Of a stretch of 64,000 nt of DNA, positions 4,540-57,985 are shown piece by piece (within the stretch, counting starts at the first letter, position 1; each line of letters starts with the position of its first letter). Both the position numbers and the translations under genes were made by a program. The DNA lies in contig MEDY01000018.1 in assembly GCA_001724265.1 (NCBI GenBank), positions 62,001 to 126,000 on the forward strand, in the 5' to 3' direction. A model generated the notes under the pieces. That model saw nothing but the letters and a program-made list of their open reading frames with translations, had not been told where the DNA came from and searched no databases. Source of the stretch: Rhizaria sp. SCN 62-66 (Eukaryota).

Positions 4540-7500
4540 TCACTCTTCAATGAGTTCGTAGTAGAGCATGTACGCCTTGGTGACGAGCAGCGGCGACAAA
4601 TCCCTCAGCGGTTGCACTTTGTCGTCGCTCACCATCACCCAGCCGCTGGGCACGGCCTGTGAGTTCGTGTACGGCTGCGGTCCCTCCTGCTCTTCGTTCA
4701 GCACCGCGGCGGCGGCGGCGGCGGCGTCTTTCTCGACGCGCTCCTTGTCGGTACCCGTGGCACTTGTGTTGGCGCGGGCGGACTCGGCGGCGAGTGGGAG
4801 CGCCGCGGCCGAGCTCTTACTCGCCGCCTCATCATTGCTCTTGCTGCTGCCGTCGCCCTCGCCCTCGTCGTCGTTGTTGTTGCTGTTGTTGCCGCTGCTG
4901 TTGCTGATGGCAGCGCTGGCCTTGGCGGCCGCCGCCTTGGCCTTCGCAGCGGACACGGCAGACAGCGACGCGCCGCCGTTAGCGCATCGCCACTGCCACG
5001 CCTCTGCGCACTTGTTAAATTGCGTCAGCGCCGTCGGGCGCGTCAGTCCGCCCGTGGCCTCGGTCACGGCCGTAGCGACCTGGGCTGCCACGCCGGCGCG
5101 CCTCAGACCGCGCTTCGCTGCTGCTGAGTCAGCAGCAGAACCCGCGGTACTCATGGCGCCCGTAATACCCGGGATACCCGGGATACCCGTGGAGTCCTTG
5201 TTGCTGCCCGAGTCCGCGGTCTGGACGTTGTTGGCATCGTGGAGTGCGGAAATGGGCATGGGCTCTGTATCGCGGCCGCGGCCGGCGGTTTCGCCTCCCC
5301 ACGACACGCCGTGGCGGCGGAAGGCGATGTAGTGGCCCTGCGACGCGGAGCCGAAGTGCGAGACGACCGAATGGAGGCGGTAGCGCAGGCCGCGGGGAGG
5401 GGCGGTGACGACGGGCAGCGGAACACCTGACCCGCCGGTACCAACGGCACCGCCGCTGTTTGCGGAGTTATTCAGCGCGACGATGCTGTTGGGCGCATTC
5501 GCGGCGTTGGCGGCCGCCGCCTTGCGCGCGCCGGAGGACACAATCGAGCTCATGTCGGCCTCGAGGGGGAAGTTGACGACGTGCTGCACCTTGGCGCCGC
5601 CGCCGTTGCCGAGCCGGTCGAGGTGAATCGCGAGCAGCGGCGGCAGGTAGACGAGCTCCGACCGGGCCTGGGTTTTTGCGCGGATCAGAAGCGGCATCAC
5701 CGGCGGCTGCGCATGCTCACGGGACGACGAGCTGGCGTCGTGCGACGGGATGCCGAAGTACCCGGGGCTCGCGGAGAGGTTCTCGGGGTTCAGGTCCTCG
5801 GGATCGACGGCGGAGGCGGAGTTGCGGGAAGACGCGGGACCGAAAAATCCGTTGAACCCATCATCTTCATCTTCGTCGTCGTCGTTGTCCTCGTCCTCGT
5901 TGGTGCCATTGCCCTTCTTGTTGACATGAACATAGCCATCGTCATCCTCGCCGTCGTTCCCGTCGTTGGCCTCGGTCGGGATGTCAATTATATCTTTTTT
6001 GCTCAGGGCTTTCGTCTCAGAAAGCGGCATCATCGCATTCTTGTTATCGCTGGTGTTTTTACCGCCGTCCTGCGCCGCATTGAGCGCGTTGAGCTTCTCG
6101 CGCGCCTCCGTCATCTCTCTTGCCGTCAGCAGCCGCATCATGTCCCCCGCCACGCCCGCCAACGCCAGCGCCTTGAGCCCAGCGACGCCGGCCTTCTCGG
6201 CGGCGGCCTGCGCGCGCGCGCTCGCGGCGGCGCCCGCGGCCGCGGCGGCGATCTCCGTCTCGACGTTAGCGGCCGCGTGGTTGCTAGGCTTAATCCCCGC
6301 CGCGGTGTCGGCGCTGATGCGCGCCGCGGCGGCCAGCGCGGCGCGGCGCGTCGCCAGCGCCGCCTCCTTCGCGGCGGCCGCGGCGGCCGCGCGCGCGGCG
6401 GCGGCCGTCAGCGCGCGGCGCAGGTCCTTGGCCTGCGCACGCAGCCGCGCCTCAAGCACGACGGCGCGCGCGAGCTCGGCGGGCAAGCGGCGCAGCAGCG
6501 GCAGGAACGCGCCGAGCGGAGCGCGCGCGATGACCGCGGCGCCGCCGGTGAGCACATTGGCCAGCGCGGGCGCCGACTGCAGCTGCAGCTCGCGGCGCTT
6601 GGCGGTGACCTTCTTGATCGATGCGAGGACCTCGGCGAGCGTGGCGGCGTCGGAACAGACGGCGCAGACGACCCCGTCGATGGTCTCGGTCGCGGCGTAC
6701 GCGGCGAAGCAGTCCGACAGCGTGACGGCCATGTTGGCCGCGAGCGGCGCGGGCGGCGGCGGCGCGGGCTGCCCCGAGGCCGCGGCGGCGGCGGCCAGGG
6801 AGGCCGCGCGGCGGTCCGCGGCCTCGGTCGGGGATGGGATCGGCAGTTTGAGCACGAAGAAGGGCTCCGGCACGGCCGCGTTGGGCGCGTGGCAGCGCTC
6901 GCAGGTGCGTGATGCGGCCTGCAGGCCGGTGAACGGGGACGGCACGGCGGACACGATGGCGGGGCGCTCGGTGGGGAACATGATCGACTTGGCACTGTGA
7001 TACTGCGAGTCATCGTCAGCATCACTCTTGCTCTCATCAGGCTTTTTCGGAACGCTAGCCTTGCCAGTGTTGTGAGAGCTCACGGTCTTGGTGTTGTCGC
7101 TGTTGCAGTACGCGGAGCGGAAGCCGTTGATGCGCTGCGCCGCGACCGCCGACGCCGAAGCCAGCGCGTCGATCAGTCGCCCAATAGCCTCCTCGGAGTC
7201 GTGTTCAGCGCCGTCACCAAAGTCGGGGAAGCATGAGACGAAAGCGCGGTGCGCCGCTTGGGCCTCCGCGACGGGTGGACCCATGGGGGCGGCAGCGGCC
7301 CGGGCGGGGGGTTTGCCGGGCACGCCGGGGCGGCTAGCGGCCGCGATGTTGGCACTAGGAACTGTCATGCGGTCTGCGAGCGCAACGAGAGCGTCGAGGA
7401 GCTAGAGCAGGCGCCACTGCGCGGGGCCGAAGCTCGCGCGCACGGCGGCCGCGGACCGGGGGGTGGCCGCGGAGCGGGAGGCGGAGCCCGTGAGAGAGGA

Positions 7501-8151
7501 GAAGGCGGCGGAGAACAGACCCAGCATCTTCGTGCCCACCGACGCGTTGGCGCTCGCATGCGCAGTGGAGGCGTCGCTTTCGTCATCGCCGTCGCCGCTG
7601 CCGGCGCCGTGGCGGACGGCGCGGGGGACGACGGGGTCCGGGCAGAGTGAATCGAGCCGCAACAGCTCGCGGGTCGCGCGGAGGTAGAGCTCGGCGCGCG
7701 GGAGAGCGAAGAGGCTTTGCAGCGTGCTGTTCCAGTAGCACGTGTTGCCCAGGTTGGGCAGGCCGGAGACGGTAACGGGCGCGCTGGGGGGCACGGCGGG
7801 GGCGGACACCTTCGCGCGGGACGCAGCGGGGGCGGCGAGGGGCTTCTTGGGCCCAGACGCAGAGGCGGAAGAGGCCTTTGCACCGACAGCGGTCTTGTCT
7901 GCGGCGGCAGCTTCAGCAGCAACCTGCGAGGGGATGCCAGTGCCTGCGGTAAGGCCGGTGGTGTGCTGCTTAACCGCAGCGACGAGGCGGCCAATCGCGC
8001 CGCTGTTGTAGAGCAGGACGAGCGCGGCACCCGACGCGAGGGCTGTGGTGCCGAGCACGGCCAAGGGGACGAGGCTCGAGGCGTCGAACGGGCGCTGCCG
8101 GCGGCGGCGGCCGTAGGACGCGGAGGAGTAATGGTCGTAGACGGGCGGCAT
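4540..8151 (-). CDS. Ubiquitin-specific protease (C19/USP) with an N-terminal hydrophobic anchor (USP30/Ubp16-like layout), ~1203 aa; one in-frame TAG at 7404-7402
   Basis: Cys box GLPNLGNTCYWNSTLQSL is in ORF 7402..8151. EHDSEE, CxxC pairs, His box YRLHSVVSHFGSASQGHYIAFRR, WVMVSDDKV and AYMLYYE are in ORF 4540..7368. The two ORFs share a frame and are separated only by TAG plus 11 sense codons. Ends TGA. Confidence 0.88.
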
Positions 8152-11451: not shown

Positions 11452-14400
11452 ATGCTATCAGCCCTTTTGGGTTTCTGCAAATCACTCCGCCGCGGCGCCT
11501 CGACCGACTCTCTCGGCGACTACGACGCCAACACCATGGACCTCCGTCCCCACCCCAGCGACCTCATTACTCCCTCCTCGGACCGCAACAGCAACAACAG
11601 CAACAACAACAGCGATTATGCGAGCCACAACAGCAACACCGACGGCAGCGACGTGACTCCACGCGCGATTGTGACGTATACGTTTGACTTCTTCGCTCTG
11701 CCGCACCACGCGCAGGTGATCGTCGTGTCTTTCCTTTCCCACCCGCAGCGCGCCCGCCTCGCCCGCTGCTCGCGCGCCGCGCGCCACCTCGTCAACGACG
11801 CGTGGCGCACCGGCGAGAGCTACTTTGCTGCGCGCTTCCGCGAGGCCGTGTTCCCCTTTTACGCGCCCATGCTGCCCGGCGTGACGATCGGAGAGTGGAA
11901 CGAGTCCTTGCGCGACACCATCAGGGCCTCGCGCGCGGGTTGGGATCGCTCACTCACTCTCGCTGCCTCCGCCGCTGCCGCTGCTGCGGCGAACTCCACT
12001 GCGTCTGCAGTGGACGGCGGCTCCGACGCGAATGCGCGGCAGACTGCGCTCGCGGTCGCGGTCGCCGAGAGCAAGTACCGTGGTCGCACCGACGAGGCCG
12101 TCGTGTCTGATCGAGAGGAAGAAGAGGAGGAGCGCATTGCAACCTCGGCCAAGCACTACAAGAGCCTCCGCAAGAAGGCCGTCGCGGCCGTCGCCGGCAA
12201 GAAAGGCGCTGACGGGGATGAGAAGGAAGACGAGGATACCACTGTGGGCCGCCTTGTCTCTGAGAAGAGCCTTGTTGCCATGAGTGACGATGACGCTGCT
12301 CCTACAACAACTCCCACTCCGGTTAACTATGACGTTGTGGCGGGGCCCAATGTCGCCGTCATGACCGAGGCCGAGCGCTTCGTGCTTTGCTACACCTCTG
12401 ATAGCGAAGGATCGTCCTCCGACCTTAGCACCTCTGACGACGAAGACGATAGTCACAACGACGACGCTACTAAGAGTAAAAACAAAGCTGCCCCGACTAA
12501 CAAGTCCACCTTTAATGCTGGAGCTGTTAACGTCCAGGCCTTGAAGCCCGCTGCCGCCGCTGCTGCTGCTAAGGGTGCGCCTGGCAAGACCACGACGCCC
12601 GACACGGCGACGGCGACTGCAACTGCCAAGTCCAAGCCCGTTAAGACCGGGCCTTCCCGCCGGCTCACTCTCGCGCTCCAGGCCGTCGCGGCGGGCACGG
12701 CGACGGAGACGCAGCTGCGGCGCGCGCTGCGGCGCGAGTGGGGGCAGCTCGTCAACGACTTCGACGACAACCCTCGGCTGGACTGGGCGAAGAAGGAGCT
12801 GCTGCCGAACGACGGTCACGGACGGGTGTGGGGCGCCGTGTTCAAGTACCACGACCAGGCGCGGGTGCAGGCGAAGCTGCGGAAATACCTCGCCAAGCAG
12901 GAGCAGAAGCAAAAGGACGCCCTCGCCGCTGCCGCTGCCGCTGCTGCGGTTTCTGCAACTGACAAGAAGGCCGACGTTGGTGACAGTGCGAATGCAGAGT
13001 CCTCGAGTCTCAGCTCTACAGCTACCGCGACTGCGACCGGTGTTGCTGCCACAGAGTCTGACTCGTCGAATCCTAACTCCCCTTCCGTCGCCCTCATCAA
13101 GGATACAAGCACACCTCCTGCTACTGACGAGTCCAAGGACTCCAAAGACACCGCAGCAACAGACTCTGCCACGAAGGACTCAGCAAAGACGGAGGTTGCG
13201 GTGCAGGACCCGGTGGGCCGCCGCCGCCGCTCGCGCCGCCGCGCCCAGGCCCCCGTGGCGCGCGTCATCCAGCGCGACCCCATCTGGGCGGCGCCGGAGG
13301 CGTTCTTGACCGTGGCCGCGGCCGAGACCGCGGCGGCCTCCCCGCTGTCGGCGCCTCCGGCCGCGCTCGACACGAGCTTAGTCTCGCTGTCCTCGCAGGG
13401 CGCGGCGCTGTCCTTTCTGACCGACGCAGTGGTGATCGCGGGCACGGACGGCAGCTTGCTGTCGTACCGGCTCGAGAGTCAGCGCGAGTCGATCCAGGTG
13501 ATGATCGACCAGTACCGCGAGCACATCGCGCGGCAGCCGCCCTTCCAGCACATTGCGCAGTGGCTCGCTGCGACGCCTTTCGCCGACGCCATCCCGACCC
13601 TCATCGACGCGTCGGCCGCGCAGCTGCTCACGCAACACCTGCCGCCCGACGGCGTGATGCCGATGGTCGCCCACGGCGGCGGCACGCTGTCCTCCTGCCG
13701 CCCCACGTGCCTCACGGTCTGCGACGACCTGGTGTTCGTGGCGGGGCGCATGCTCACAGTCGCCGAGGGGGCGGACCCCCACCCGCACCCTGAGACGGCG
13801 CCGCAGGGCCAGCTCTACAGCTTCGACGCCGCGCCCAAGACTGCGATGCCCTTCGCGGCCTCCCGCACCCTCAACTCGGCGCTACTGACCATCCTCGCGC
13901 GCGCGGAGGAGAGGCTCGGGGTGCGGTTCCCTGCCGAGCCGTGCTCGTTGCGGTCGACGCGCACCCGCAATCGCCGCGGCCCGCTCGCTGCTGAGTCAGC
14001 AAAGCGCGGCGCGTGCGCGCGGTGCGGGGACGCGGCGCGGACTCCTGACTCAGCAAGCTCAGCTACTGAGTTAGCGATTACTGAGTCAGCAAATGCGGGA
14101 GTGCGGTGCGCGGCGTGCGTGTGCCGGAAGAAGGAGGACGAAGAGGAAGAGAAAGAGGCCGCCTTGGCGAAGGCCGAGGTCGAGGCGATGGCCAAGATCC
14201 ACGGTATTGCCTGGGAGCCGGCGTTCAAGGGCGCCGGTGACGAGGAAGAAGAGGAAGACGATGAGAGTGATCTCAATAACTCCGACGAAGACAACGAGCA
14301 CAGTGTACGTCTCCCTAAAAGGAACAAAGAACTACAATGTGCGCACATTGTAGTTCTTTCTGTATTATCAGAACTTAAAGCTTGAATGTAGAGTTATGCT

Positions 14401-17400
14401 CTTAAATATTAATTATTGTATAATATGGATATCCGCTAAGTTATAATTTGAAGTGATTTCATCTTGTGGATATATCCCCCATTTCAATAGCCCCCATTTC
14501 TCACCCAAATCCTCTCTCTCACACTGCCTTATCGTGATACTCCATCCACAGGGCGTGCGCCCCGTGCCCGCCCTCTGGGCGCACCCGACGCTGCCCACGG
14601 TCGAAGTCTCCCCCGAGACGGGCGCCGAGGCGCTCGCGCTGCGCCTGACCCGCGCCGCCGCCCGCCGCCGGGCCAAGTGGCACACCGCCGAGGACCGCGC
14701 CAAGGTGCCCCTGCCGCAGCCCCGCGACTGGCCGCTGGACTTCGACCTGGGACTGTCGCCCTAGCAGGCGCGCGAGCTGTTTGCGTGGCGCAAGTGCGAG
14801 CACACGGACCCGCGGTCGGATCTGGAGAGCTGTGTGTATCATATGTGCAATCCCAACGCACACGCCAACATGGTCACCGCGATCACCGGGTGTACGTCAG
14901 AGATGAAAACTAGTAATACTCGATTTGATTATTGATATCAAGCGTTATGAACACGAAACTAAGTGATTAAATTCAACTCTAGTTCTACTAAATCAAACCA
15001 TTGCTTTTAATGGATAACGTTCTCACTTTTTCGATATATCTCTACGATTGTTTTGATTACGACAGGGCGTGAGGACTTCAGGAACGACGCTTACGACGTC
15101 CAGGAGACTGCCCCCTTGCCCAAGCCTGGCACCGCTGCCGCCAAGGCTGCCGCCGCCGCGAAGACGATGTCCGCGGCCAAGTCCGAGCACCCGTACGGGC
15201 GCATCGTGACCGGCGCCAACGACGGCGTGGCCGCTGTGTGGTCCGTCTGCTGCGGCGACCGGCTGACTGCGTGGCGCGCGCACGACGGCGCTGTGACAGC
15301 GCTTGTAACGATGCCGAACTCGGACGTGGTGTCGGCGGGCACGGACGGGAAGATCCGCTGCTGGGCGATGATCGAGGACGAGAACACGCGTGAGATCAAC
15401 TCCAAGATCCTTAAGGCCGCGGTGGACAAGGGCGAGAAGAAGGCCAAGGACCGCGCCGCGCGCCGCAAGCGCCGCGAGGGCCGCGAGCGCCGCCGCCGTG
15501 CGCGCGACAGGCGTGTGGCGGCGCGGCAGCGGAAGCTCGGCGAGGTGATCGAGCAGGAGCTCACTGCGATCGCCACCACACGCTCACTCAGCGACCTCAG
15601 CGGCGACCTCGGCGACAGCGGCTCGAATCGCACGACCAGCGCCAACATGACCGACGCTGGCGAGAGCGATACTATTGGTGCGAGTGCGAGTAATGGGAGC
15701 GGTGCGAGTAATGGGAGCGCGGTCGAGCGGCTGAAGCGCGATTATTACCCGTTGGGCGTGCCCCAGTCGGTGCTGTACCAGTTCGCTCGCCTTCCGGTGC
15801 CGCAGTCGGTCACTGAGAAGGAGCAGGAGGCCGAGGCTTTGATCGCTGCGGTGGCGCTGACCGAAGCTGCGAACAGGGTCAACACTGAGGCCGCCGCCAA
15901 AAAGGACAAGAAGTCAAGCCGCGGCCGGAAGACCCGCCGCAGTCGCCGCGGTGCCAGCGCAGCGAATGATAGGCAGGAAGGTTCTGACGAGTTTGGCGAG
16001 CCGATGCTGCCTGGTGAGCGCGGCTCTGTCATGATGGCGAGCTCGAGCTCCAGCGACAGCGACAGCGACGACGACAACGCTGATGATGACAACAACGGTG
16101 ACAGTGACAGCGGTGACAGTGACAACGAAGACAACGACAACAACACTGCTGTCGCTCTCCCTTCGACGTCCACCGAGGTACTTTTTCATATCAACAACTT
16201 AAACAAAACATATCTCACTTAATTTCGAACTTGCTTTCCTAATTTTCGGTCTCGTGGTTTAAACTATTGTTTTATATCTGCACTCTCGCTTTTACTTTAT
16301 ATTTTCTATTTTGACACTTCACTTCCAGGCCCAGAACACTGCCGCGCTGCTGACCCTGTTTGAGCGCTCCCAGTCCGTCGCCAAGACAGCCCGCAAGCTC
16401 CGTACGCTGGCCGACGAGGACCCCGAAGTTTCCCCGGATACGGACACACCGCGGTCTCGCCGCAAGGCCGCCGCCGCGCTCGCCGCCGCTGCCGCCGCCG
16501 CTGCTGCCGCTGCCGCCGCGGCAGGCACCTCGGACCCCAACGACACTGCCGCAGCGCCCGCCGCTGGCTCTAATAGCAGCAGCAGTGCGGAGGCCGAGGC
16601 GGCGCGGCTCGACGCCGAGCGGCAGCGTCTGCTGTCCGGTGACCGCCGCAGCATGCTTGAGGAGCTGCTGATGCTCGACCGCAAGCACACCAACGACGAC
16701 GGTAAGGATAGCTCGAGCTCGAGCGAGGGCGACGGCGACGGCGACGACGCCGAGGCCGTGACCGGCGTGTGGGCGCCGAAGCAGAACCTCGCGCAGCCGC
16801 CCAGCGCGCTGGTTCGCAAAAATGCCAAGTCTGCGGCGGACGCGGCCAAGGAGCTGCCGCGGTCGCTGGCGCAGCTGAGGAAGAACCGCAACCGCGGCAC
16901 GGGCTCCAAGGACGTGGTGCTGTACAACTACTTCGCGTACGCCACGGACTGGTACCCGGGCAAGAAGAAAGCCAAGTCGACGCGCACGCTGCGGCTGATT
17001 GCCAAAGGGAGCGAGAGGCGCAAGGCCAAGACGGCCGCGGCGAAGAAGCTCAAGGATAGCAAGACCGCCTCCCCGACCGTCGCTGCCGCTGCTGCCGCTG
17101 TTGATGTTGCAGTGACGGCGACCGAGGGCGCGGAGGCGAACAAGGACGCCGGCAAGGCAATGACTGACAGCGACAACGCTAGGATGAGCACGGTCGCCAA
17201 CAAGGTCTGTCCCTGCGCCTGTGGCTCCTGCCACTTAAATAAGCCTGGGACCGCCGCCTCTGCCGACTCGACTGCGATCCTGCCTCTGTCGTCGACGCCC
17301 TTTAAGTCCAAGGACTCCTCTTCAGTCAAGTCTGCTGCTGGTGCTGCTGACTCAGCGAAGCCCGAGATCACCCCTCTGGCCGAGGCGGCCGCGCGCGCCG

Positions 17401-20400: not shown

Positions 20401-21035
20401 ACACCGCCGCCAAGGCCAAGGCGGCAGCGGCGGTGGACACTGCGGCGAAGCAGAAGGCGCGTAACGCCGAGGAGGCCGCGCGCGCAAAGCGGCGGCGCGC
20501 GATCGAGCTGGGCGGCGTGGTGGCGCGTGACGCGCGCGTGGCCGGCGAGAACAACACTGCGTGGCTCGACGACATCGAGCACGTGCGCGCGCTCAACCGC
20601 GCCAAGCTGGAGGAGCGCGTGCAGCGGTACGTCATGGTGGCGGCGACCTTCGACGACCCCACGGCGGACGCTAAGATGGGCGTGTGGAAGTGGCCCGTGA
20701 GCCAGACGGGCGCGCCGCTGGGCCGCTCGCAGGCGCAGCAGGACGCGGAGGTCGGGGTCCGCGCGCTCGTGCCCGCGGACGCGCCCGGCGCAGCGGCGGC
20801 GCGGAAGCTCAAGCTGAGCCAGATCGCGCTGTCTGAGGGCGGACGCTACCGGCCGCAGCCGCTGACTCCCGAGACACTTGCGGCGCCGTACAACAACCCC
20901 AACGCGGGGTTCAAGCTGCAGGGCCGCGTGCTTAAGGCGATCATGCAGCCTGAGCTGAACAAGCTCAGCGCGGCGAGCACCGGGCTGCCGAGAATGATGC
21001 AGGGCCTGCTGGACCGCCTGCTTGGTAACCAGTAA
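11452..21035 (+). CDS. Giant F-box / WD40-repeat protein, ~3003 aa. Exons 11452-14304, 14552-14891, 15066-16177, 16329-21035; in-frame TAG at 14762-14764 and 19614-19616
   Basis: F-box-like FFALPHHAQVIVVSFLSHPQRARLARCSRAARHLVND. WD40 repeats AHANMVTAITGW...IVTGANDGVAAVW and AHDGAVTALVTMPNSDVVSAGTDGKIRCW; later beta-propeller-like strands (LLFAGGQGGVAVLDLRTGRVVQHL). Three phase-compatible GT-AG introns. Ends TAA. Confidence 0.75.
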
Positions 21036-45159: not shown

Positions 45160-47636
45160 TTAGATCTCCTCGCCCGCGATGCGGTCTAAGTACGCCTGCC
45201 ACGCCTCATCACGGTACCGGGCCGCCGCCGCCGCGACAGCATCCTTGCCCCACTCGCCCTCGCTCCCAACCACCTCGCCTTCCGCCGCCGCCACGGCCGC
45301 CGCCCCCGTTGTGGCTGCCGCATCCGTGGCGGTTGAAGACGAGGCGTCAGTCCTATCTGTTCCACTGCCAGCGTTGGTGTTCGGCACATCAGCTGCAGTG
45401 GCGGTAGCTGGGGTGTCCTTAGATGGCTTGGGGCGGTGTAAGTATTTGATGATGCCACGCCCGACGATGATGACGTCCGCGTTGCGGGCCATGACGGCGC
45501 TGCGCACAGTCACATACTGCTGCCCAAGCTTGTCACCGCTCACGCCACTCGGCGTCGGAGCGCCAGAGCCTGTGGTGGCTGCTGACTCTGCAGCGGGGAC
45601 CTTAGGCTGAGCCGGTGTGTTGATGTCGGGCATGCTGACGCCCGGGGTCATCATCACGAGTTCCAACGCCCGAGCCTGTCCGCCGCCGGGTGTGGTTACT
45701 GCAGGGCTAGCGCTGTAACTGCTGCCAGTTGAGTTGAGAAGCGGTGCGCGCGACATCATCTCAGTGCCTTGTCCGATCAGGCCGCAAACCACACTCCCCC
45801 GGTATGCTGCAGTGTTCTTGCTCTTGTTTGCAGCGTTGTTGTTGTCAGCGATCATGGCGATGGCACTGTCGGTGTATTGCTAAGTCAGTAAGTTGCCCTT
45901 GCTCGACATGTGCGCGAGCAGCAGCACACCGCGCGTGCCGTGACTCGGCTCACGCAGCGCAGACACAATGGCGCTGGCAGCAGCGCCGTGACCGGAGCCA
46001 GCCGTGCTGCTGCTTGTGGTGTTCAGGTTGCCCGCGTCAGATCTAGCGCTGTTTTTGCTAAGCTCGGTAATTGCCTCGCTAACGCCGGTAAGCAAGCCAG
46101 GACCTGGAAGCGCATGTGCCGTGATCATGTGAGCCCACTATAGGGGCTTGAAGACGCCACCGCTGCACTGCAGCATTGCCGTGTGACCGATGTCACTAAG
46201 CTTACGATCCTCGAACAAGAGGAATCTACAACGACAAAGGTAAACATGTAAGTCTTAAAATAATAAACATTTGAATGACATTGAATCTCAATCGAAGGAG
46301 CAAACTCAGCGTTAATTGATGGAAGTAGAAAGATAACGTACCCATGCTTGATTGCGAGCCCACTCAGCGCTTCGGTAACTTGTGAAGTGAAATCGCTAAG
46401 GATGTCGACATGCGTCTTTAACACCGCGATATAAGGCCCCGCAGCGTCTGCAACTGCAAGCAAGTCTTCCGTTGTCGTGACATCGGCAGACAGGCAGAGG
46501 TTGCTCTTCTTAGCGCACATCAGCTCAAACAGGGACTGTGTGACAGGGTGACAATGCAGCGCATGGCGCGCCGGGAAGTTAAGTCGTGAGCTCACAGTTA
46601 CTGCGCGCGGTCCCGAAGTTACACCGCCGTGGTTACCAGTTGTCGCAGCATCAACAGAAGCAGCAACAGCAGGAACATGAGCAGCAGAAGCAGCAGGACC
46701 AGCAGCAGGACCAGCAGCGCCACTGCTCATGCTGCCGACAGTCGAGACAGCAGCAGGCGGTGACGCGGTGACCGCACTGGGGCTTATCTTTGCGCCTGCG
46801 CCAGTGCCTGTGCTAGCGCCAACCTGGTTGTTTTTGATGAAGTCGAACACACGGTCAATGACGTCCTGCTCCAGGAGACTCTCCTTCTTCAGCACCTGCA
46901 TCATCGTCGTGATCGTGAGCACCGCGTGCAACCGGATCCCGTTGCGCCGCAGCACCGCCGCGCCGCCCTGCTCGCGGTCAATCAGCACCACCACGTCCGT
47001 GACGGCGATTCCGCTGTCGTTTGCCGTGAGAGGCGCGACGGTCTCGAGAACCGATGCGGCACTCGTGACCAGGTCTTCCACAACAAGGCAGTTGTCGCCG
47101 GGCTTCCAGGAACCCTCGATAAGCTTGCCCGTGCCGTAGGACTTAACCTCCTTGCGGCGCATTACCATGGGGACGTTGTGCGCCAGAGACATCACAGTCG
47201 CGATTGGCAACGCAGTATAGGGCACGCCACAAAGCAACTGGTAACGGGTGTTGCTGCTCTTTGTCTCCGCATTCTCGCCCTCACTCTGCGCTAGCGCAAC
47301 ACCACCGTTTGCTGCGTTTTCGGTACTAGCAGAGGACGTAAGCGTGGTGCCCGCGCCGTCGCTGTGCGTGTTACCTGGCGCAGTGAACGTGTTGGCCTCG
47401 TCCCACATCAACCGCGCAGTCTCTTGCAGCAGCTCCGGGTGCGACACCAGCTCGCGCAGGTCGATGTAGATCGGGGACTCGAGCCCGCTCTTAAGCGTAA
47501 ACGTGCCAAATTTAACCGCGCCAATACGGTGCAGCGCGAGCACGAGCGCGTTGATCGCGTCAGCCTTGCGGACCGCAGGCGCTTTGGGGGCGGGCGCTGG
47601 GACGGCAGCGGAGGCACTCTTCTTGCGCGGTGGCAT
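45160..47636 (-). CDS. UMPS: Bifunctional UMP synthase (OPRT + OMP decarboxylase), ~786 aa. Exons 47636-46342 and 46225-45160; in-frame TAG at 46140-46138 and 45882-45880
   Basis: OPRT motifs: FGTFTLKSGLESPIYIDLR, CGVPYTALP, RRKEVKSYGT, VVEDLVTSAAS. ODC motifs: NLCLSADV, LKTHVD, FEDRKLSDIGHT, LLLAHMSSKG, MTPGV, GDKLGQQY, DVIIVGRGI, YRDEAWQAYL. Ends TAA. Confidence 0.95.
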
Positions 47637-48007: not shown

Positions 48008-51000
48008 TTATTGCTGAGATTGCGAGACAACACGCGGCTGCTTCCACGGCCCAGTCCAGTTGTCGAGAACACTGTTGTCGACGATGACATCGCCGTCGGC
48101 GCTGTTGGTCAGGGGCAACTGCAGCAAGCGCTCGTACGCGTCGATTTGCTCGCGGTCGCCGACGTACGCGACGATGTCGAGGGCGCCGGTCATCTGCCAG
48201 CGCTGTTGCGAGTCCTTCAACTGAGAGACGGCGTTCGCGTCAGTACTCGCGCTCGGAGGCTGCGGCACCATAGAGAGCATCGCAATCACACGCGCCAACT
48301 CCACGGCCTCCGCGGCGGTGTCGCACACCACGATGACGCCGTCGCTGAACCACAGCGCGTTGTTGACCCGTACGGCCTTCTCCGCCTCGGTGCGAATACC
48401 AAGCTCACGGTCCAAGACGCTCTGCGGCAGCCCCACGCCGTCCTTGTACACGCTCACGCGCTCAGCCCCGCCACTTACATCGGCGCCCGAGGCACTTAGA
48501 CCGACATTGTGGAAGTGCCGGAAGCACTGCTCGAGCTCGGCACGGCTGCATACCGCGGTGTTGCGGTCGTACGCCGCCACGCGCGCCGCCCTCCGGACCG
48601 TCTCGATGTCCTTAGGCAGGTCGGCCGCGGGCGCCTGCTCGGTGATGTACGTTACCAGCACCGGAAGCGACGTCAACGCGCCGCGCGGGCCCGCGGCGGC
48701 CGCGGCGGCGAGCTGGTCCGCGGTCGCGGTGTCGTACGTGGCCGCGGCGGCGAAGGGAACCGCGGAAGGCTGGGAAAAGGGGCGGGAGCGCGCGTCGGTG
48801 ATGTGGGACAACAGAGAGGCCCAGTTGCCGAGATTCGAGAAGGCCACCTGGCGGTCGGAAGCTAAGCCGCGTGGGAGGACAAACTCGGGATTCGCAATTT
48901 CAGCATCGGCGTAGTCTGAGTCCGAGCCAACGTTATTGCTCTCGCCGTCGTTATCGTCAATCAGCTCTTCATTCGCGCTGACACTGTTCTTATTCGAGAA
49001 GAAGCCGGAGACCGCGCGCGCAAGAGAGCTGAAGAAGCCACCCTTAGACGCGGTGTCCTGAGAGGGACTTAGATCCTCGCCCTGGGCCGCAGCGTCATCC
49101 CTGGGAGTGTTGTCGTCCACAAAAGAAGGGTTTATGGGAATACCGCTCGAATCAACGCTGGCGAGATCAGTGCACACCGTCTCACTCACAAACACGCGCA
49201 TTTGCCCACTCACGCGGACACGGCTGAAGTCGCACTTGCTCGTGACATTGCCCACGCTAGTGTCGGTGTTGACGTTGTGACTGTGGGCCGCGATCGCGTT
49301 CGCGACCTCCAAGTGCTGCCACGAGAACCAGTCGAACAGCGCGCGCGACTTGCACAGTACCGCTGACTCAGCAAACCGCGTCGCAGCGGACTCGGCGCGG
49401 AAGCGAGCGCCCACCGCCGCGAAGCACCGGAGAGCGTTCAGTGAGGAGGCGGCCGCTGAGTCAGCAGTCGCATCCGCAGCCTCGGCGGAAGAAACGGCGG
49501 TGGTGGCGGCGGCAGCGGCGGCAGGCACCGTGATCAGCCGCGACGGCGCAGCGGCCGTCTCCTCCGCCACGGCGGCCACGAGCTGGGTCACAGTGACCGT
49601 GGGCACGCGCGCTGGCAGGAACTTCACGGGGTCACTAGCGGCGGCGGGCGGCTTCGCGCCGTGCGCGTCGCGCAAGCCCACGCCCACACTGCTCAAACCG
49701 GGAGTCGCGGTGGTGCTGGCCAAGTTTGTGAACGCGGCGGGCACCGGCGGCGGCGGCGGGCGTCCCTCCTTGGCGGCGTCTGCGGTCGCCATGAAGCTGC
49801 GCATGTGGTTCAGCTGCCGCTGTCGCTCAACCTCCTTTTGCTCAGAAGTTAGGCCGCCGTTGCTGCCAGCCGCAGCGGCGCTGCTGCTGCCGTTGGTGAG
49901 GGGCAGCGCGTCGTCGATAGTGGTGTAAGTGTCGACCTCGAGCCCGGCGATGGTGAGCAGTGGCGTGAGATTGTTGTTGCTCGAGTCTGTGTGCGCGTGC
50001 TGAGGCTTCACCGTTGTGGTGATGCGGGAGAGAACGCGTGCGCCGTCGATCTGGGCCAGAGTATTCAGCACGAGAGCAGTGTAGAACTGGTTGCTGGTCA
50101 CGATACCAGCGTTGGCACTGCTGTCGTAGCGCGCGATGGCGGTGCTAGCATCTTCGTTGTTGGTGCCGGTGGACGCGGTGCGCGTGCTTGCCTGAGTTGC
50201 AGCGCCGTTGTCGCTGCTGCTGCTGCTGTTGTTGTCCGCGGTCAAGAGGCCGCGGTACAGAGCACGCGGCGCACAGTCAAACTGCACGCGCTCGTCGTAG
50301 TTGGGCCAGACCGTGTTGACGAGCTTGTACAAGTAGCTCTCATCGCCAATATGACTTGTTCCAACATCATCAGCAGCACCAGCGTCATCGTCTGTAGCGT
50401 TAGCGGCAACATTGCTCGAACTACCACTCACCACAACCTTGGTAAGATGGAGCGAGCCGAGATCGCGAGACAGAGAGGAGTCCTCCAACTCGGCCAGCGC
50501 GGACTCGATCCACTCCATGTCGCTCTGCGGAGTCAGCACCAGCTCGCCAGTGCTCGCGACAGCAGCGCCAGCATCAGCGCTAGCAGTGGCAGAGCTCTCG
50601 GTGTCAGCGGCCGCAGCGGCAGCGGCAGTGGCCGTATGCGCGCGGATGACCTGCAGCGCGCGCTGTGCGAGCCCGATGAGTTCTTCGGCGTCGCTGGAGT
50701 AACCCTCGTGCAGAGCAGCGTACAGGTACGCGGCGAGCTGTGCCGCAACCTTCTTGCTATCGCTATTCCAGACAGCGTTCACGTCCGGAATCGCACTGAT
50801 GTCACCCATGCCCGCAGCCAACCCACGGTTCCCAGTGACGACGGTGACGGTGTGGTCGCAGAGCGTCATCGCCTCGACCATCATCGCCCAGCCAGCCAGA
50901 CACCACGCCGTGTGCGCCAGCGTGTCGTCTTGCGCCTGCCCCACCTGCGTGGCGAGCGACGCGGCCTGGCCCAACAGCTCCTGGGCCTCGGCGCCTACCT

Positions 51001-54000
51001 GCACAGCGGGGGTGTCGCGGCCCAGCGCGCCCGTGAGCGTACGCGTCAGCGGGCTCGCCGCGCCCGGGTAAGGATACTTAGACGCAGGAGTACTTAGATC
51101 CAGCTCCGCGGTGGGGGCCACGCTGTTGAAGTCGTGTTTCGCGAGCCCAAGCTGGTCGAGCGCAGCGACGCGAGCCGCGTGCTCGTTCATGCGGATATCA
51201 TTAGCAGTAGTTGCGGTCGCGTTCGCGGTCTGATCACGAAGATCGGGGTTAATTTCGTGCATCTTGGCCTTGATGGCGGCCTCTTGTTGCAAAATAGCCT
51301 CGACCTGAGCGGCGTACGCGTCGGTCGCGTTGCCGCCGCGCGTGAATGCATCACCCGCCTTGACGACGCCGTCCGTGTGGCTTGCATTAGCACGCGCGCC
51401 ACTCTTAGCGTTGCCGTCGCTAGTCAGCAGAGAGAGGTTGCTGCTGTACGATAGCAGTGCCGTTTCGGCGAGGGCGTCCGCAGCCCGCCTGTGCGTGACG
51501 GGGACTAGGGTCTCGATCGACGTGCCGTTGACGATTTCAGCGGCGATAACGCTCCGCATAAGCGAGTCGCGGCCGAAGACGAACTAAGCAACACAAATGA
51601 AAACAAAGAAAGACAATACGAGATAACAAAAAGCAATTTGATTAGTAAAATACAATAGCCAAGTCGGATAATGAATAATACAATAGATTGAGCCAAATCC
51701 CGCGTCGTTTTTAGTTATTAGGCGTGATCCGTGACTTGAGACGTACAACAGACTGGCCGAGCGGGACGGCCGCGGTGGCTTCCCACATCTCGTGCCGCGC
51801 CACGTTGCCACTCACCGCCTGCACGCGCGTGTCGCAACGGGCGAGCTGGTCCTGGAGCGCGACGATCTGCGTCAAGGCGACCCGCAGGCGCTTCGTCATC
51901 CGCGCGTTATTGCGCGGCACGGAGAAGAAAAGCGCGCCGAACTGTGCGGCGGTGGCGTAAAAATGTTGCAACGCCCGGAACATCTGCGCCGACGCGGGCG
52001 AAAGCTCGATCCCCGGCTGCAAATGGTGCATCTCGAGCGTCTCCGTGACCAGAGCCTCTGGGTAGCTGAGCGTGTGTGCGACGTGGTGGCGCATCGTCGC
52101 CACGCTCTCGGCACACTCCGCAGTCAGCCGAACGCCCGCCCCCAGCGAGGACTCCACCAGCAGCGCCGCGCGCTGGCTCGCGTCCCTGCACAGCCGCTGC
52201 GCGCTCTGCACCGCGTCCGCCAGCTCAGCTCCGCGCAGCACTGAAACATCCTGCGGCGACGCGAGCTTGTGGTCAAGCGCGGTCCGCAGCGCGGCGGCCA
52301 GCGCGGCGGGCTCCCTCGCGCGCGCGAGGGCCAGGTCCGCGGCCTGCCGCGCGGTGCTCAGGTGCGCGTGGACGGGCGCACCGGTCGCGGGGTCGCGCGC
52401 GACGGCGGCGGCGGGCGCGTTGGCCCCCGGGACAACCATCGGGCTGTGCTTGGGGTGGTGCACAGTCAGGGCCAGCATGCGGCGGCGGAAGCGGGAGGCC
52501 GCGACCGAGAACGCCAGCACGCGTGGGATCTCCTCGGACCGTCCGCTGAGGAGGCCGCGAAGGAGGGAGCGCGGGGCCCGCTCGTCCGACAGATCTTGCT
52601 GCCACGTCGCAGGGAGGCGGCCGGCGACCGGGCTGGCAGCGCTGAGGGGAGTCTCGTTCACAGCAGTCGAAGCATTCGCGGTCGGCGCGGTCGCATTCGC
52701 ATTCGCGGCCGCAGTCGCAGGATCAGTGGCCGCGGCTGCGGCCGTGCGGCCGTGCAAGGAAGCTAGCTGCCGCGGTGCGTGCCGGTGACGGTAGTACGCG
52801 GGCGGGAATGTGGGGTTAAAGCCGCGGCTGCGCGCGAAGGCGTCGAATCCGCTGAGGTCTGCGCCCCGCGGCAGGGCCGAGAGCGCGGGGACGGAGTAGG
52901 TCTCGCCGTTGTACGCGCGGGAAATCACCTCGCCAGTGCTCGTGCCGTGGGGAGACGCCGTCTGGGAGGAATGATCGGAGTGGGTGAACGCGCCCGCGCT
53001 GTTGTTGGATCCGGAGAACCACTTGTTGATGAGGTTGATGTTGTCGTTGTGGACAGACTCAAGCACTGCGCTGCCCACAAGAGGGTCAACGTCGCTGTTA
53101 CCAGTGCCGCTGCTGCTGCCGTTATTGTTGGGATGAGCATGTCCGCGGCTGCTGTAAAGCGCATTGGTGGGGACAAAGCCTGACTCAACCGGCTTCCCAC
53201 TCGCGCGTCCGATCGCAGCAGACTCCTGCGTCGTGGTAGCTTCACTCACCGGAGTGGTACTGTTCGCCTGGGTTGCGCTGACAGGGCTAATGACGTTCGA
53301 CTTGCGGTTGTACTTCTTGGCGGCGTGCAACGGCTCCGCCAGCGCGTGGCCCGCATGCATCCTGCCGCCCCACACAGAGGGGTCCACCCACCACGCCACG
53401 TCGTCCTCCTCGCCCCACGCTTTTTTCGGTCCAAGCCACGTCCCGCGGACGCCCACAGCGGCGGGCGACAGCAGTTCCGTGGGCATCGCAGCCGCGGCCG
53501 CCCGCTGCCGCACGGGCGCGCCCGCCGAGAGCCAGCGGCCGTAGCCGTCTGCGCGCGGGGTGAGCCCGGTCACCGCGGCGGCCGAGGGCGGCTCGGAGAA
53601 GAAGGACTGGGGGTCGTAGCTGCCGATCGAAGGCAGCGTGAGCGAACGGTTCAGGGAGAGAATAGGGGCCAGTTTGCGGTCGTAAAGCGAGATATTGGAG
53701 TTGAATAAGTCAGGTCGCTGGAGCAGCACAGACGGGATGGAGCCGAAAGAGCGGGTAAGGGGGTTGAAGGTACTTACATCGCGGCGCCAGTCGCCATTGA
53801 CCTCGTGCTCACTGCGCAACGACGTGAACACATCGCTCAAACACTGTCCGTCAGAGACGTTGGGCTTAGCATATGCGGCAGCGTGAGTGGTATTGCGAGC
53901 GAGGGACGCAAGCGCAGGCGTGATGATGGTGTCGATGGTAGCCTGCGGCAAAGCTGGACCGACATCTGACATCACCACGGTGCCCAGCGCTAAAGCCTTT

Positions 54001-57000
54001 GACGACGGTGGCAACGACGAGGACAGCGGGGCAGTAAAAGCGGTCGGCTGGGGACTAAACGCAAACGCGGCGGTGGCGGTGCTGCTGCTCATCGAGTCAG
54101 GCAGAGACGTGACAGCGGCAAACACATTGTCACCGTTCTCTGACTTCACAGCACTGTTAGAGCTATTGCCACTGGTTTGGTTTTCAACGATATCACTGTG
54201 GCCAATCATCGCAAGCACATCGCTCGCCTTGTGACCACTGCTTGCAGCAAAGTCAGCCTCACGCTTGATCCCCGCAGCAACAGCGCTTAGCACCGCCGCC
54301 GCGGCCGCCCTGTCAAAGCTCTTGACGTGTCCCTGCGCGGCGCCCGAGACGCCCGTGCTGAGCAGCGGCACTTCCCCCACTCCGCCGGTTGCCGCGGTGA
54401 CGGCGCTGGCGCTGCTGCTGGCACTGTTGCGCGCCGCGGACGACGCCGCCGCGGCGAATCTGTTGAGATTCGCGAGCTGTTGCTTGATCGCCGCGGGGTC
54501 GGCGTACCGCGCAGGCGCGAGCAGCGGGTCTCTCTCGCGGATCATGTTGTCGGCGTACTTGAGCGCGAAGGTGCGGGCGTCGGCGTTGGTCAGGACGTCG
54601 TACTCCTCGTCCTCGCGGCGGTCGGGCTTCGCACGGCTGTTGTAAATATCCAGGTTAGTCTTCACAAAGTCGCCGCCGTTCGCGCTCGCACTCGCCGTCG
54701 CCGTCTTGCTGCCACTCGTACTCGCAGTATTGACAGTCGAGTTGTTATTGTGACTCGCGGTCTGAGCGTTCTTACCGAAGGGGTCGTGCGGCGCGTGGGG
54801 GTAGTACGGCACGCCCAACACTAGCATCGGCGTCCCGTCCGGCCGCAGGTTCGCGTCGGCGTTGCGCCACTGCGCACGGGCCTCGACCAGCGCGGCCTCG
54901 GCGTCCTGCTGCTTCTGCTGCTGCTGGTGCAGCTTGGAGACGGCGGTGGCGCCGTGACCGCCCGGGAAGTACACGCCTCCGCTCTGCAACGGCGAGGGCA
55001 CCTGCGACTGGGACTGTAACTGCGACAACGACGGGACCTGAGACGGCGAGTACGCCGATGTCTGTGGTGGCGATTGCTCTGACTGCGAGGGCGCGTACTG
55101 CAAGGGCCCTGCGGCGACGGCCCTGTTCATGGCCGCCGTGAGCACGGCTTGTTCGATCACCGCCGTGGCCGAGGAGTTGGCCGCTGGGTCCATCAAGATG
55201 GCGTGTGCGCGCGCCTCGCGGGCCCACGCCTCGTGGGGCGCCATCACGCGCGGCGAGCGCCGGTGGTGGCGGGCCAGCGACTGGGCGAGCAGGTGCGCGT
55301 GCTGCGTGGCTAAGTGGGCCGCCTCCGCGCTGGGGTACTTAAACTCCAACGGCGGCGGGAGGCTGCCGCTGCGGCGCGGGGAGGCCGCGGTGTGCATGTA
55401 AGGGTGCTGAGAGAAAGCACCGCCGAGAACAGCCGAAGTCACGCTTGAATCATTGCTGTTACAGTTGTTGTTGTTGCTGCTACCCAGACGCTTGCTCCGG
55501 TAGTAGTGGTACTTAGACGCCTCGCTGAGGTCAATCGGCGTCAGCACGCTGTAAGTACCCCGTAGACCCATCCGCGCAGCCTGCCTCTTGAGCGCCGCCC
55601 GGTGGGTCAGCCGCGGGTGCAGGCTGTAGTGGCTATGAGCTGCAGTCAGCGGCGCAGGGAATCGCTGGCCGGCGCCGCCAGGCGCGGCTTGATTTAAAGG
55701 CAAGCCGCCCCCCAAGTGCGACAGCGACGACGAAGATGACGACGAAGACGCGCTGTCACCCGCCTGCGCGTTGCCGGCGCCGGCGCTACCGTTGCCATGG
55801 CGGTGACCGTTCGCGCTCAGGTTCGTGGTCGCGTGTGTCGGCGTGTGCATCAGCGTGTGCGCCCGCGGGAGGTCGACGGGGATCGCGAGGGACGGCGCTG
55901 CCACCGTGTGCGCGGCCACGACCTGCAGTGTGGCCGCAGCGGCGTCGTCGTACACCGCGATCGGGACCTGCGCCCGGGCGAACACCAGCGCGGACGTGAG
56001 TGCCGTGATCTCGCTCAGTGAGAGCAGGCAGTCCGCGAGGTCAAGTCCAAGCGCAGCCAGCGCCGAGGGCTCGGGGGCCAGCTCGCCCGCGAAGCTGTGT
56101 GTGACGGCGACCGGCGCCGCGCAGAAAGGATTACTCCCCCCGCCGCTGTGGCTGCCGTCAGCAGAAGCAGCAGCAGCAGGGAACCCGTCGGCTCCTGATG
56201 CGGTGCCAGGGGCAGTATAAGGATTACTCCAGGGGTCGGGCGTCAGTGCGGTCTCTGCAAGTGCCAGCTCGGGCGCGGGCGCGGCCGTCACAGCGCACAC
56301 AGCGTCGTAGCGCTCGGCAACCCAGTCGCGCACGGTCCCCCTGCCCAGCGAGAGCGAGTGCGAGGGCGGGGACAGCGCGGTGGGGTTGCGGAAAAGCCGG
56401 TGCGCGCGCGCCGCGGCGGTGAGCGTGGCGAGGAAGGGCGGGTAGGGGGCCGAGGCGGAGTCGAGACCGGGGGTCGCGTGGTGGTACTGGCCCTGCGCAA
56501 ACGTGTACGCACTCGCATTCGCGCTATCAGGGCTCGCGCTCGAGATAAATCCACTCGATGCGCTGTTGTTGTTGTTGTTGTCGTTGCCGGTGAGACCGTT
56601 GCTGTTGGTGGTGCTGAGGGTGGGAGTCGACGGCAGGTAGTACGAGTGGCCGTTCAGAGCCATGACTTCGCGGGCGGCGGCAAGGACGAGGTTGAGGCAC
56701 GTAAGCCACTCGTGCTTGTCGACAGGGACGCCGTTGATGCTGATGCGGCCGCGCAGCGAGCCTGGAGTGAAACAAAAGCAAGGAGTGACACATTAAAAAG
56801 TGAGAGGATATCACAACAACTAAAGGTAGATCAGCAATACAAAGCTCCATAAATCAATATCAGTGAAATATTTTTGTGTTCGTTTGTTCATGTTGACGCA
56901 CCTGAGGCCGGGTTGTTTGTGACGACGCCCACACTGTGCCCATACAGCAGCCGGAGCCCCGTCGCCAGCTTGGTCTGGATCTCGGTCGCGCCCAGATCTC

Positions 57001-57985
57001 CGGTCACCGTGAACGCGATCGGCGCGGTCAGCGAGCCTACCACAGTGCCGTTGCCACTGCTCGTCGCAGTGCTTGCGCCCGCGCTCAGAGGGCTACTGAG
57101 GGCATTGGGGAGGCGTTTGTGTGACAGTGGGGGCGGGATGTCGCCGCGCGCCTCTAAGTACCTCCGAACGTAAGCCGCACCTAGAAGCGAGGCGTCGCAG
57201 GGCCGCACAGCGTTGACGCGGGAGAGGTACTCGACGGCGTTAGCGTACGCGGCGTCGGCGTCGTAGGACGCCGGCAGCGCGACGGCGGAGCTGTCGCTTT
57301 GCGCAGGAGAATTCGACATCGCAGTAGACGCTGGCACAGTCGTGTGGCTACTGTCGGACTGAGCAGGGCTCTCGCTAGATGCTGCGGTGTCGGCGACAGG
57401 CGCGGCGCCAGTCTCCGCACTGCTGCTAGCCTCAGTCGCAGCAGACTCGGCCACAGCAGACTCGGCCACAGCAGCAGCAGTAGAAGCGGATGCAGATGCA
57501 ATGGGAAGTGGTGTAGCTAGGCAAGGGTACGTCTCAGGCCCCTGTGCACTCGCACCCTCGTCAATACTACCGCCTTCGTCCTAAGACTGCGCGTGCGAGC
57601 GCCCAAAGAACAACGTGGCCTTCGCCTGCGCAGCAGCGGCCGCAGCAGCAGCGGCAGCGTTGGCGGCGGCGATGGCGTTGGCGGCGGCGGTCGGTGTGAA
57701 GGACAAGGGGACGCCGAAGTGGCGGTGCGCGGAGGCAAGCGGAAGCAGGCGCGGGGACACAGGCTCCTTGGCCCACACGGCGCCAACATAAGTGCTGGTG
57801 TGGGAGTTGGAGGCCTGAGTGACTGGGTTTGCAACAGAATCTGCGGCGGTATCGCTGGCGGGCGTTGCAGAGGTGGTGGCCGCGGCGGCGGCGGCTGAGA
57901 GAGCGCGCTGGACGACACATTGCGCAGTAGCGGAGGCGCGGAGTGCGGTGTGCCGGGCGGTGCGCCGGGCGTGCGCGGTGAGCAT
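48008..57985 (-). CDS. Giant, probably mitochondrial, degenerate FolC/folylpolyglutamate-synthase (Mur-ligase fold)-like protein, ~3224 aa. Exons 57985-56902, 56761-51747, 51583-48008; in-frame TAG at 57583-57581
   Basis: Arg-rich, acid-free presequence. Two phase-compatible introns join the ORFs. Collinear FolC-like segments such as FTVTGDLGATE...SLRGRISINGVPV, EITALTSALVFARAQVPIAVYD and DTLAHTAWCLAG. Ends TAA. The gene model is firmer than the family assignment, which is by eye. Confidence 0.65.

Follow-up and report, generated by a model that had tools for sequence, protein, structure and literature searches.

A probable nuclear genetic code with UAG as a rare sense codon in an uncultured wastewater eukaryote

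We analysed a stretch of 64,000 nucleotides (hereafter the window) from contig MEDY01000018.1 of the assembly Rhizaria sp. SCN 62-66 (GCA_001724265.1, contig positions 62,001 to 126,000), in which TAG codons stand inside the reading frames of several genes. With a probability of about 0.85 we consider UAG to be translated in this organism, with UAA and UGA terminating translation, as had been proposed from the letters of the window (the original prediction). The evidence for this consists of in-frame UAG codons in conserved regions, including catalytic domains, of an absence of UAG terminators and of in-frame UAA or UGA, of a coding signal that stops after TAA and TGA and not after TAG, and of TAGs that recur unchanged in independent samples. 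UAG would then no longer be a termination codon and would serve as a rare sense codon, with UAA and UGA ending all genes. A tRNA with anticodon CUA would be expected to decode it, and the release factor eRF1 would have lost its recognition of UAG and kept that of UAA and UGA. The window itself is best explained as part of the nuclear genome of a eukaryote that is uncultured and was sampled in wastewater or bioreactor metagenomes.

Gene models were built independently of the original prediction, with TAA and TGA taken as stops. The 12 models together comprised 15,369 codons with 11 TAGs, no TAA, no TGA and no frameshift in frame. All 11 positions that had been listed in six genes proved to be TAG codons in the frame of long open reading frames (ORFs), and the accompanying claim that internal TAA, TGA and frameshifts are lacking held in all 12 of the new models. 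TAG occurred at a frequency of 0.72 per 1,000 codons and in 6 of the 12 modelled genes. The six TAG-bearing genes hold 12,932 codons and the six TAG-free genes 2,437, for which a uniform rate predicts 1.7 TAGs and a probability of about 0.17 of finding none, so that TAG acts as a rare codon spread according to gene length.

Two TAGs lie in the gene for UMP synthase (UMPS), an OPRT-OMPDC fusion on the reverse strand (45160..47636). Its exons (47636-46342 and 46225-45160) are separated by one intron (46341-46226, GTACGT..TAG), the removal of which restores the conserved junction KHGFLLFEDRK, and the gene ends in TAA at 45160. Both TAGs belong to the OMP-decarboxylase domain, one at 45880..45882 in the context MSSKGNLLTxQYT (x denoting TAG here and below) and the other at 46138..46140 in the context GGVFKPLxWAH, where it adjoins an invariant Trp. 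Both were located in aligned OMPDC blocks in the comparison with the solved human and other UMPS structures, and again in aligned blocks of two homologue sets of 119 and 114 sequences. The catalytic motifs FEDRK..DIG, MSS and VGRGI are intact in the translation. Alternative splicing around the TAGs would take these motifs out of the protein.

A third TAG in a catalytic domain is found at 7402..7404 (reverse strand), as codon 250 of a USP/UCH gene (4540..8151, reverse strand, single exon, terminator TGA) and at residue 272 of the ORF. This ORF gave one UCH match over its residues 151-967, with the Cys box upstream of the TAG and the His box GHYIAF downstream of it, so that a stop at 7402 would cut the UCH catalytic domain in two. 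A search for homologues with the USP protein gave no hits, low-complexity words having overwhelmed it, and phmmer against PDB aligned the Cys box alone. TAG 7402 is therefore uninformative on the amino acid. It may be part of the QQDAxEFLxxLLD helix.

The gene starting at 23400 (23400..30554, forward strand, 2,341 codons, terminator TGA; exons 23400-25753 and 25883-30554, with an inferred choice of acceptor) carries TAG as codon 13 (23436..23438) and as codon 231 (24090..24092). An exhaustive HMMER search with its protein found five proteins at E ≤0.001, of which two were public ORF fragments of the locus itself; two or three relatives were found in all. One of them, P0123 (754 aa), encoded on a Joint Genome Institute metagenome contig of 15.7 kb, is a true relative that aligns across both TAGs (29% identity in BLASTP, 35% in phmmer). 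The N-terminus MGVKHLLKLM is conserved in P0123 and in P0125, which places the start of the gene upstream of TAG 23436. TAG 24090 lies in the conserved block VPVVRLHASWDG..KASTMVxRRA, of which KAST..x.RRA is shared with P0123.

Public gene calls of this locus (P0001, P0121, P0122 and P0129) are cut at TAGs and introns, and the proteome of the organism is therefore fragmented in databases. P0122 corresponds to residues 32-230 of the protein encoded by the 23400 gene, exactly between the two TAGs, and is recorded on 6 contigs; its end thereby lends indirect support to TAG 24090. Public ORFs bounded by TAGs of the window recur on 3-6 contigs, and the contigs that carry public ORFs of the locus reach 209 kb. 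Annotation or binning with the standard genetic code will cut short roughly half of the longer genes in this lineage.

The remaining six TAGs are distributed over three long genes. An F-box/WD40 gene (11452..21035, forward strand, 4 exons, 3,003 codons, terminator TAA; Pfam scores of 27.7 bits for WD40 and 19.6 bits for F-box, the latter slightly below the cut-off of 20.5) has one at 14762..14764 in exon 2 (14552-14891), an open frame with a GTACGT donor and CAG acceptors, and with a G+C content at third codon positions (GC3) of 0.95 upstream and 0.90 downstream of the TAG. Its second, at 19614..19616 in exon 4, interrupts the acidic run EDEDxDEDE and is preceded by 1,117 and followed by 472 open codons, with coding scores of 0.41 and 0.72, respectively. 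A phosphatase gene (32268..39552 from a predicted start, forward strand, terminator TGA), with exons 32268-37331 and 37492-39552, an intron at 37332-37491 and a Metallophos domain in exon 2, contains three: 32448..32450 (codon 61, counted from the predicted start), 34416..34418 (in the low-complexity N-terminal part) and 35487..35489 (context YYYxQQH). The coding frame of its exon 1 (1,688 codons) has these three TAGs and neither TAA nor TGA, and each of the five other frames has 31-97 TAA plus TGA and 9-41 TAG. The last TAG, at 57581..57583 on the reverse strand, lies in exon 1 of a gene at 48008..58141 that comprises about 3,225 codons from a provisional start, in 3 exons separated by introns at 56901-56762 and 51746-51584, and ends in TAA; the coding score is 0.36 before this TAG and 0.23 after it.

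The 12 models end in TAA (seven) or TGA (five), and three more ends could be placed, namely TGA for NDUFA12, TAA for a Ser-rich ORF and TGA for the last gene. Thirteen ends with 7 TAA and 6 TGA had been reported before and were reproduced; the 15 now placed are 8 TAA, 7 TGA and no TAG. Given a TAG share of 0.225 among stop triplets in non-coding DNA, the probability of 0 in 15 is about 0.02. As a common terminator TAG was thus not found among the 15 gene ends in 64 kb. TAA was the commonest terminator (8/15) despite third positions with 75% G+C and only 8% A.

Several candidate TAG terminators were considered and rejected. TAG 44302 lies in an intron of the L27 gene that is spliced out in a cDNA contig. 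TAGs 41033 and 41378 fall in introns of the XendoU gene, whose model of four exons has an open frame and TGA as terminator, and TAG 59601 falls in an intron of NDUFA12. TAG 51583 is itself a splice acceptor, and those at 18345, 19787 and 48497 belong to antisense shadow frames.

A control that was blind to the type of stop took the ends of standard ORFs with at least 60 open, coding-like codons upstream and scored whether the next 60 codons were open and coding-like. At a threshold of 0.15, such a continuation was found after 0 of 10 TAA, 0 of 13 TGA and 6 of 13 TAG; at 0.25, the counts were 0 of 7, 0 of 7 and 4 of 9, in the same order. The six TAGs with continuation at 0.15 comprise four sites of the original prediction (7402, 19614, 45880 and 57581) and two intronic TAGs (41378 and 59601), whose introns of 171 and 141 nt keep the frame. 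The predicted sites that did not enter or pass the control have a short upstream ORF (23436 and 46138) or lie in genes whose codon bias is weaker (24090, 14762 and the three in the phosphatase gene). Another approach, in which the summed ORFs of at least 300 aa rose from 20,713 to 27,165 on reading through TAG, to 39,742 for TGA and to 24,833 for TAA, was uninformative because shadow frames swamp the signal in GC-rich DNA.

These counts bear on an explanation that we consider improbable, in which UAG would still be a stop codon, or be unassigned, and would be read through efficiently by near-cognate tRNAs, owing to a weakened eRF1 or to context and with no dedicated tRNA(CUA). Genes with TAG would then give full-length protein at a reduced level. 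In the 64 kb analysed, such readthrough would look much like a true reassignment. The rarity of TAG (11 in 15,369 codons), as if the codon were costly, would fit this, and so would the absence of a tRNA(CUA) gene from the window. C follows TAG at 5 of the 11 sites, in three cases as CAG or CAA, and such CAR-type contexts resemble known readthrough contexts. However, the sequences after TAG have no motif in common, a working stop codon would not be expected to end none of 15 genes, and UMPS, a housekeeping enzyme, would depend on readthrough at two places inside its catalytic domain.

Independent samples were available for part of the window. The comparison with contigs from other runs covered positions 28000-47999 and thereby five of the 11 TAG sites. 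DNA contigs of two other studies span all five and agree with the window at every TAG; CAG stood in place of TAG at none of the five. TAG 32448 is bridged by X3 record 1 and X4 record 11, and TAG 46138 by X3 record 7 and X4 record 16, each without any difference. TAG 35487 is bridged by X3 record 2, again with 0 differences, and TAG 34416 by the same record and by X4 record 12, in which the sole difference is at 34356. TAG 45880 is bridged without a difference by X4 record 16 (DNA) and by X7 record 31, a contig from a polyA metatranscriptome run (45677-46040) which carries the TAG unedited.

This contig also addresses the possibility that TAGs are repaired in the mRNA, either by A-to-I editing (UAG to UIG, read as Trp) or by a U-to-C change yielding CAG. 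A-to-I editing of premature stops to UIG is known in some filamentous fungi. A context-choosy enzyme might affect TAG alone and never TAA or TGA, and the RNA cover is thin, with one contig at one site. We nevertheless regard editing as very unlikely. The polyA-library contig has TAG 45880 with 0 differences, Trp has a score of -16.8 bits over the informative columns and occurs in 0 of 233 homologues at 46138, and editing leaves the absence of TAG terminators unexplained.

There is likewise very little chance that the standard code holds and that the TAGs belong to unrecognised introns or precede wrongly placed starts. Five other apparently in-frame TAGs are indeed intronic or a splice acceptor (41033, 41378, 44302, 51583 and 59601), and 32448 and 57581 are close to predicted, unconfirmed starts. 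Against this, none of the 11 TAGs lies in a T-rich island of low G+C such as marks the introns here (23436 stands between two such islands), and local GC3 is 0.45-1.0 on both sides of the TAGs. Residues flanking 45880, 46138 and 24090 align with homologues, and the explanation would account for at most 2 of the 11 sites.

Least credible of all are true nonsense mutations or errors of sequencing or assembly in decaying or strain-specific gene copies: at a GC3 of 0.75, TAG makes up 0.63-0.65 of the single-step paths to nonsense, so that an excess of TAG is partly expected and by itself weak evidence, but the probability of 11 TAGs in 11 is still only 0.007-0.008, no frameshift, TAA or TGA is found in the 15,369 codons, the catalytic motifs are intact, identical TAGs are present in contigs of other studies, and TAG-bounded public ORFs recur on 3-6 contigs.

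Several observations weigh against a translated UAG. Homology on both flanks was found for only four of the 11 TAGs (7402, 24090, 45880 and 46138); the other seven lie in lineage-specific or low-complexity sequence without homologues, where the support consists of frame openness and codon bias only. Two of these, 32448 and 57581, are 60 and about 134 codons after predicted starts and might precede the true starts and be non-coding. The absence of in-frame TAA and TGA is partly built into models that assume both as stops, and the control blind to stop type is not perfectly specific, since two intronic TAGs passed it. The census of stops covers 64 kb of one organism, whose genome may also hold a class of TAG terminators. 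For a codon with a settled sense meaning, the frequency of TAG is very low. In the window, ARAGORN found no tRNA gene and Rfam gave 0 matches, which has little weight for 64 kb, and an eRF1 gene was not seen in it. The RNA evidence is modest, as X7 record 31 lies inside one exon and its library may hold DNA, and no RNA contig was listed for the other four TAGs in 28000-47999, which leaves one contig at one site.

Three sites (46138, 45880 and 24090) were informative on the amino acid inserted. The column of TAG 46138 holds D in 150, E in 60, S in 11, N in 6, L and A in 2 each, and Q and K in 1 each of 233 homologues, and TAG 24090 aligns with E in P0123. In the first of the two homologue sets, several residues share the column of TAG 45880 (A34, P21, E19, K12 and others). 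Pooled log-odds in bits were +4.66 for E, +2.38 for D, -0.49 for Q, -2.47 for S, -4.26 for K, -12.8 for L, -15.7 for Y and -16.8 for W, which puts Glu over Gln by about 5 bits from three sites. The contexts EDEDxDEDE and AQSxDEGG suit an acidic residue. Glu-decoding suppressors exist in eukaryotes with UAR = Glu and we know of no case with Asp, and Glu is therefore favoured over Asp. These alignments make glutamate the somewhat favoured residue, as a tentative lead, with Gln next and Asp, Lys, Ser and Leu less likely.

Other alignments speak against glutamate. By eye, the more distant P0125 has Q at TAG 24090, and TAG 23436 aligns with V in P0123, in a poorly conserved stretch. Of 114 eukaryotic UMPS sequences, 100 have G in the column of TAG 45880, a residue that agrees with none of the plausible assignments; the UMPS of the window also departs from the consensus at positions beside this one. 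To the complete description, in which UAG would encode Glu with UAA and UGA as terminators, in a GC-rich, intron-poor wastewater lineage without described relatives and at a stage of early codon capture (0.7 UAG per 1,000 codons), we would give slightly less than an even chance.

The window has 59% G+C, zero N and dense eukaryotic genes on both strands. Pfam matches comprise an EF-hand protein, an ABC ATPase, the UCH-type ubiquitin hydrolase, a mitochondrial carrier, the F-box/WD40 protein, a zinc alcohol dehydrogenase, a Trm8-type tRNA methyltransferase, the calcineurin-like phosphoesterase, XendoU, the mitochondrial ribosomal protein L27, UMP synthase and NDUFA12. The presence of complex I and mitochondrial ribosome genes (NDUFA12, mL27) suggests an aerobe. 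Coding regions have a GC3 of 0.75, with A at only 8% of third positions. T-rich sequence with a G+C content below 0.42 characterises introns and spacers, and the proteins are long and rich in runs of Ala, Ser, Asn and Thr. Four genes (11452-21035, 23400-30554, 32268-39552 and 48008-58141) encode proteins of about 2,300-3,200 residues, which consist mostly of such low-complexity runs around small known domains (F-box/WD40, Metallophos). The region of the phosphatase gene (32000-40000) has a G+C content of 0.52, versus 0.60-0.67 in its neighbours, and its codon bias is weaker too.

The names 'Asteroid-like' and 'FolC-like', which had been given to the genes at 23400 and at 48008-58141, found no support, as neither of the window proteins nor the relatives P0123-P0125 had a Pfam match. 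In the N-terminal region of the latter gene (56888-58141 and 51711-56792, reverse strand), a P-loop-like stretch reads TGDLGAT by eye; the canonical FolC P-loop motif is of the GTNGKGS type. The protein, if related to FolC, would be degenerate.

Fourteen introns were placed, with lengths of 116-247 nt and a G+C content of 0.32-0.43, versus about 0.6 in exons. Nine of the 14 start with GTACGT and 12 with GTACG. The 5' splice site is thus unusually uniform, mostly GTACGT, with the variants GTACGC, GTACTT, GTTCGT and GTGCG. The intron of the mitochondrial L27 gene (44215..44426, forward strand), which holds TAG 44302, was confirmed by a spliced contig from a cDNA run (X5 record 20; joint 44212 to 44425, GT..AG, 212 nt), and the spliced coding sequence ends in TAA at 44559. 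Further introns on the forward strand are at 3167-3377, 14305-14551, 14892-15065, 16178-16328 and 25754-25882, and those of the XendoU region on the reverse strand at 41877-41732, 41464-41294 and 41086-40915. The GTACGT donor motif could help to spot this lineage and its contigs in metagenomes.

DNA of the window was found again in bioreactor, wastewater and activated-sludge metagenomes of several studies (13 runs listed, 11 with part and 4 with at least half of the stretch). At the L27 gene (43941-44186), a second contig of about 90% identity from runs X4 and X7, with 25 listed differences of which 18 are at third codon positions, is probably from a co-occurring sister strain or species. Among public proteins, P0131 from an NCBI contig of 7.9 kb is a close relative of the UMPS of the window, with 62% identity in 304 aligned columns. 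The P0131 ORF has ...KHGYV as its end and thus reads into a GTACGT donor at the shared UMPS intron position. An ORF for its exon 2 was not among the hits of 193-615 aa, and this exon might be broken by TAG too or be cut by the contig end.

In a quick tree of this one gene, the window protein and P0131 paired with full support, outside the green-plant clade (28 rows, Shimodaira-Hasegawa-like approximate likelihood ratio test (SH-aLRT) 100) and the animal groups, the tree giving no resolved placement to the pair itself. A search with the Trm8 protein placed the lineage as 'eukaryote' only. When metagenomes were scanned with exon 1 of UMPS, 80 loci matched, among which neither the source contig nor a close relative was found; one of the loci (L056, 69% in one segment) was rejected as a relative and assigned to an unrelated, intron-rich eukaryote. 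Two scans of genome contigs and one of viral contigs yielded no additional DNA from the organism or from relatives.

Among known systems, the anaerobe Iotanema spirale (Fornicata) shares with the window organism a reassignment of UAG alone, with UAA kept as terminator, in a protist that is not a ciliate. As described for Iotanema, UAG encodes Gln, and UAA and UGA are stops (Panek et al. 2017, PMC5304391). The window organism differs in that the residue is more likely Glu than Gln (about 5 bits, three sites) and in its GC-rich genome with complex I and mitochondrial ribosome genes. The rhizarian exLh (Sainouroidea), for which the same paper gives UAG = Leu (PMC5304391), is also similar, as its UAG-only reassignment outside the ciliates was described from meta-omic data of an uncultured organism, but Leu is strongly disfavoured in the window (-12.8 bits).

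In phyllopharyngean ciliates, UAG is described as Leu in a TARA lineage and as Gln in Hartmannula and Trochilia, and in Protocruzia as Gln; UAA is given there as the preferred stop of UAG-reassigned ciliates (McGowan et al. 2024, PMC11687900). A sense UAG together with UAA as preferred stop is seen in the window as well (TAA 8/15 despite a GC3 of 0.75). In contrast to these ciliates, the window has 59% G+C, introns of 116-247 nt with GTACGT donors and a much rarer TAG, and the residue probably differs. In its G+C content, the size of its introns and their donor motif, the window does not resemble the DNA of a ciliate.

With respect to glutamate, the nearest system is a ciliate, an uncultured oligohymenophorean in which UAA encodes Lys and UAG encodes Glu (McGowan et al. 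2023, as described in PMC11687900). Its code is the only nuclear one listed in PMC11687900 in which UAG alone is Glu. In this ciliate, UGA is the sole stop, whereas UAA ends 8 genes of the window and is never in frame. Peritrich ciliates and Blastocrithidia nonstop are described with UAR = Glu (PMC11687900; PMC12153298) and likewise decode a stop of the UAR box as Glu. The existence of such systems makes a suppressor derived from tRNA-Glu feasible in eukaryotes. They have both UAA and UAG reassigned, whereas in-frame TAA is 0 in 15,369 codons of the window. The green alga Scotinosphaera (UAG = Ser with UAA as stop, cited in PMC11687900) shares the UAG-only reassignment, but Ser scores -2.5 versus +4.7 bits for Glu in the window, and the UMPS protein falls outside the green-plant clade.

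Two further types of code do not agree with the window. A reassignment of UAR as in NCBI table 6 does not fit an in-frame TAA count of 0 and TAA at the end of 8 genes, and an ambiguous code of the Condylostoma or Blastocrithidia type does not fit TAG, which alone is in frame and never terminates in the window. Pyrrolysine-type decoding, which goes with pylT/pylS genes and with UAG confined to certain sites in certain enzymes, seems unlikely, as the TAGs are spread over unrelated genes and 210 of 233 homologues have Asp or Glu in the column of 46138, with no special residue suggested.

Nuclear codes in which UAG and UAA differ are few, and those listed in McGowan et al. 2024 are from the rhizarian, Iotanema, Scotinosphaera, Protocruzia, some phyllopharyngeans and one oligohymenophorean (PMC11687900). 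The known cases given in the original prediction agree with what is described by Panek et al. 2017 (PMC5304391) and McGowan et al. 2024 (PMC11687900), with the omission of Scotinosphaera (UAG = Ser) and Protocruzia. In a full-text literature search, which most subscription journals lay outside, we found no report of a UAG-only code in a eukaryote from wastewater or activated sludge. Nor did this search reveal a report of UAG = Glu with UAA kept as a stop, a combination that is absent from the list in PMC11687900.

The window organism is best read as joining this small class of UAG-only reassignments. Codes in which UAG and UAA are decoupled test the idea of a mechanistic coupling between the two codons, and another case, probably outside the ciliates and with UAG used very rarely, would exemplify an early stage of stop-codon capture, which could show how eRF1 and suppressor tRNA change first. 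If UAG encodes Glu, then this organism would differ from each of the systems above and represent a new variant, and a new table, of the genetic code.

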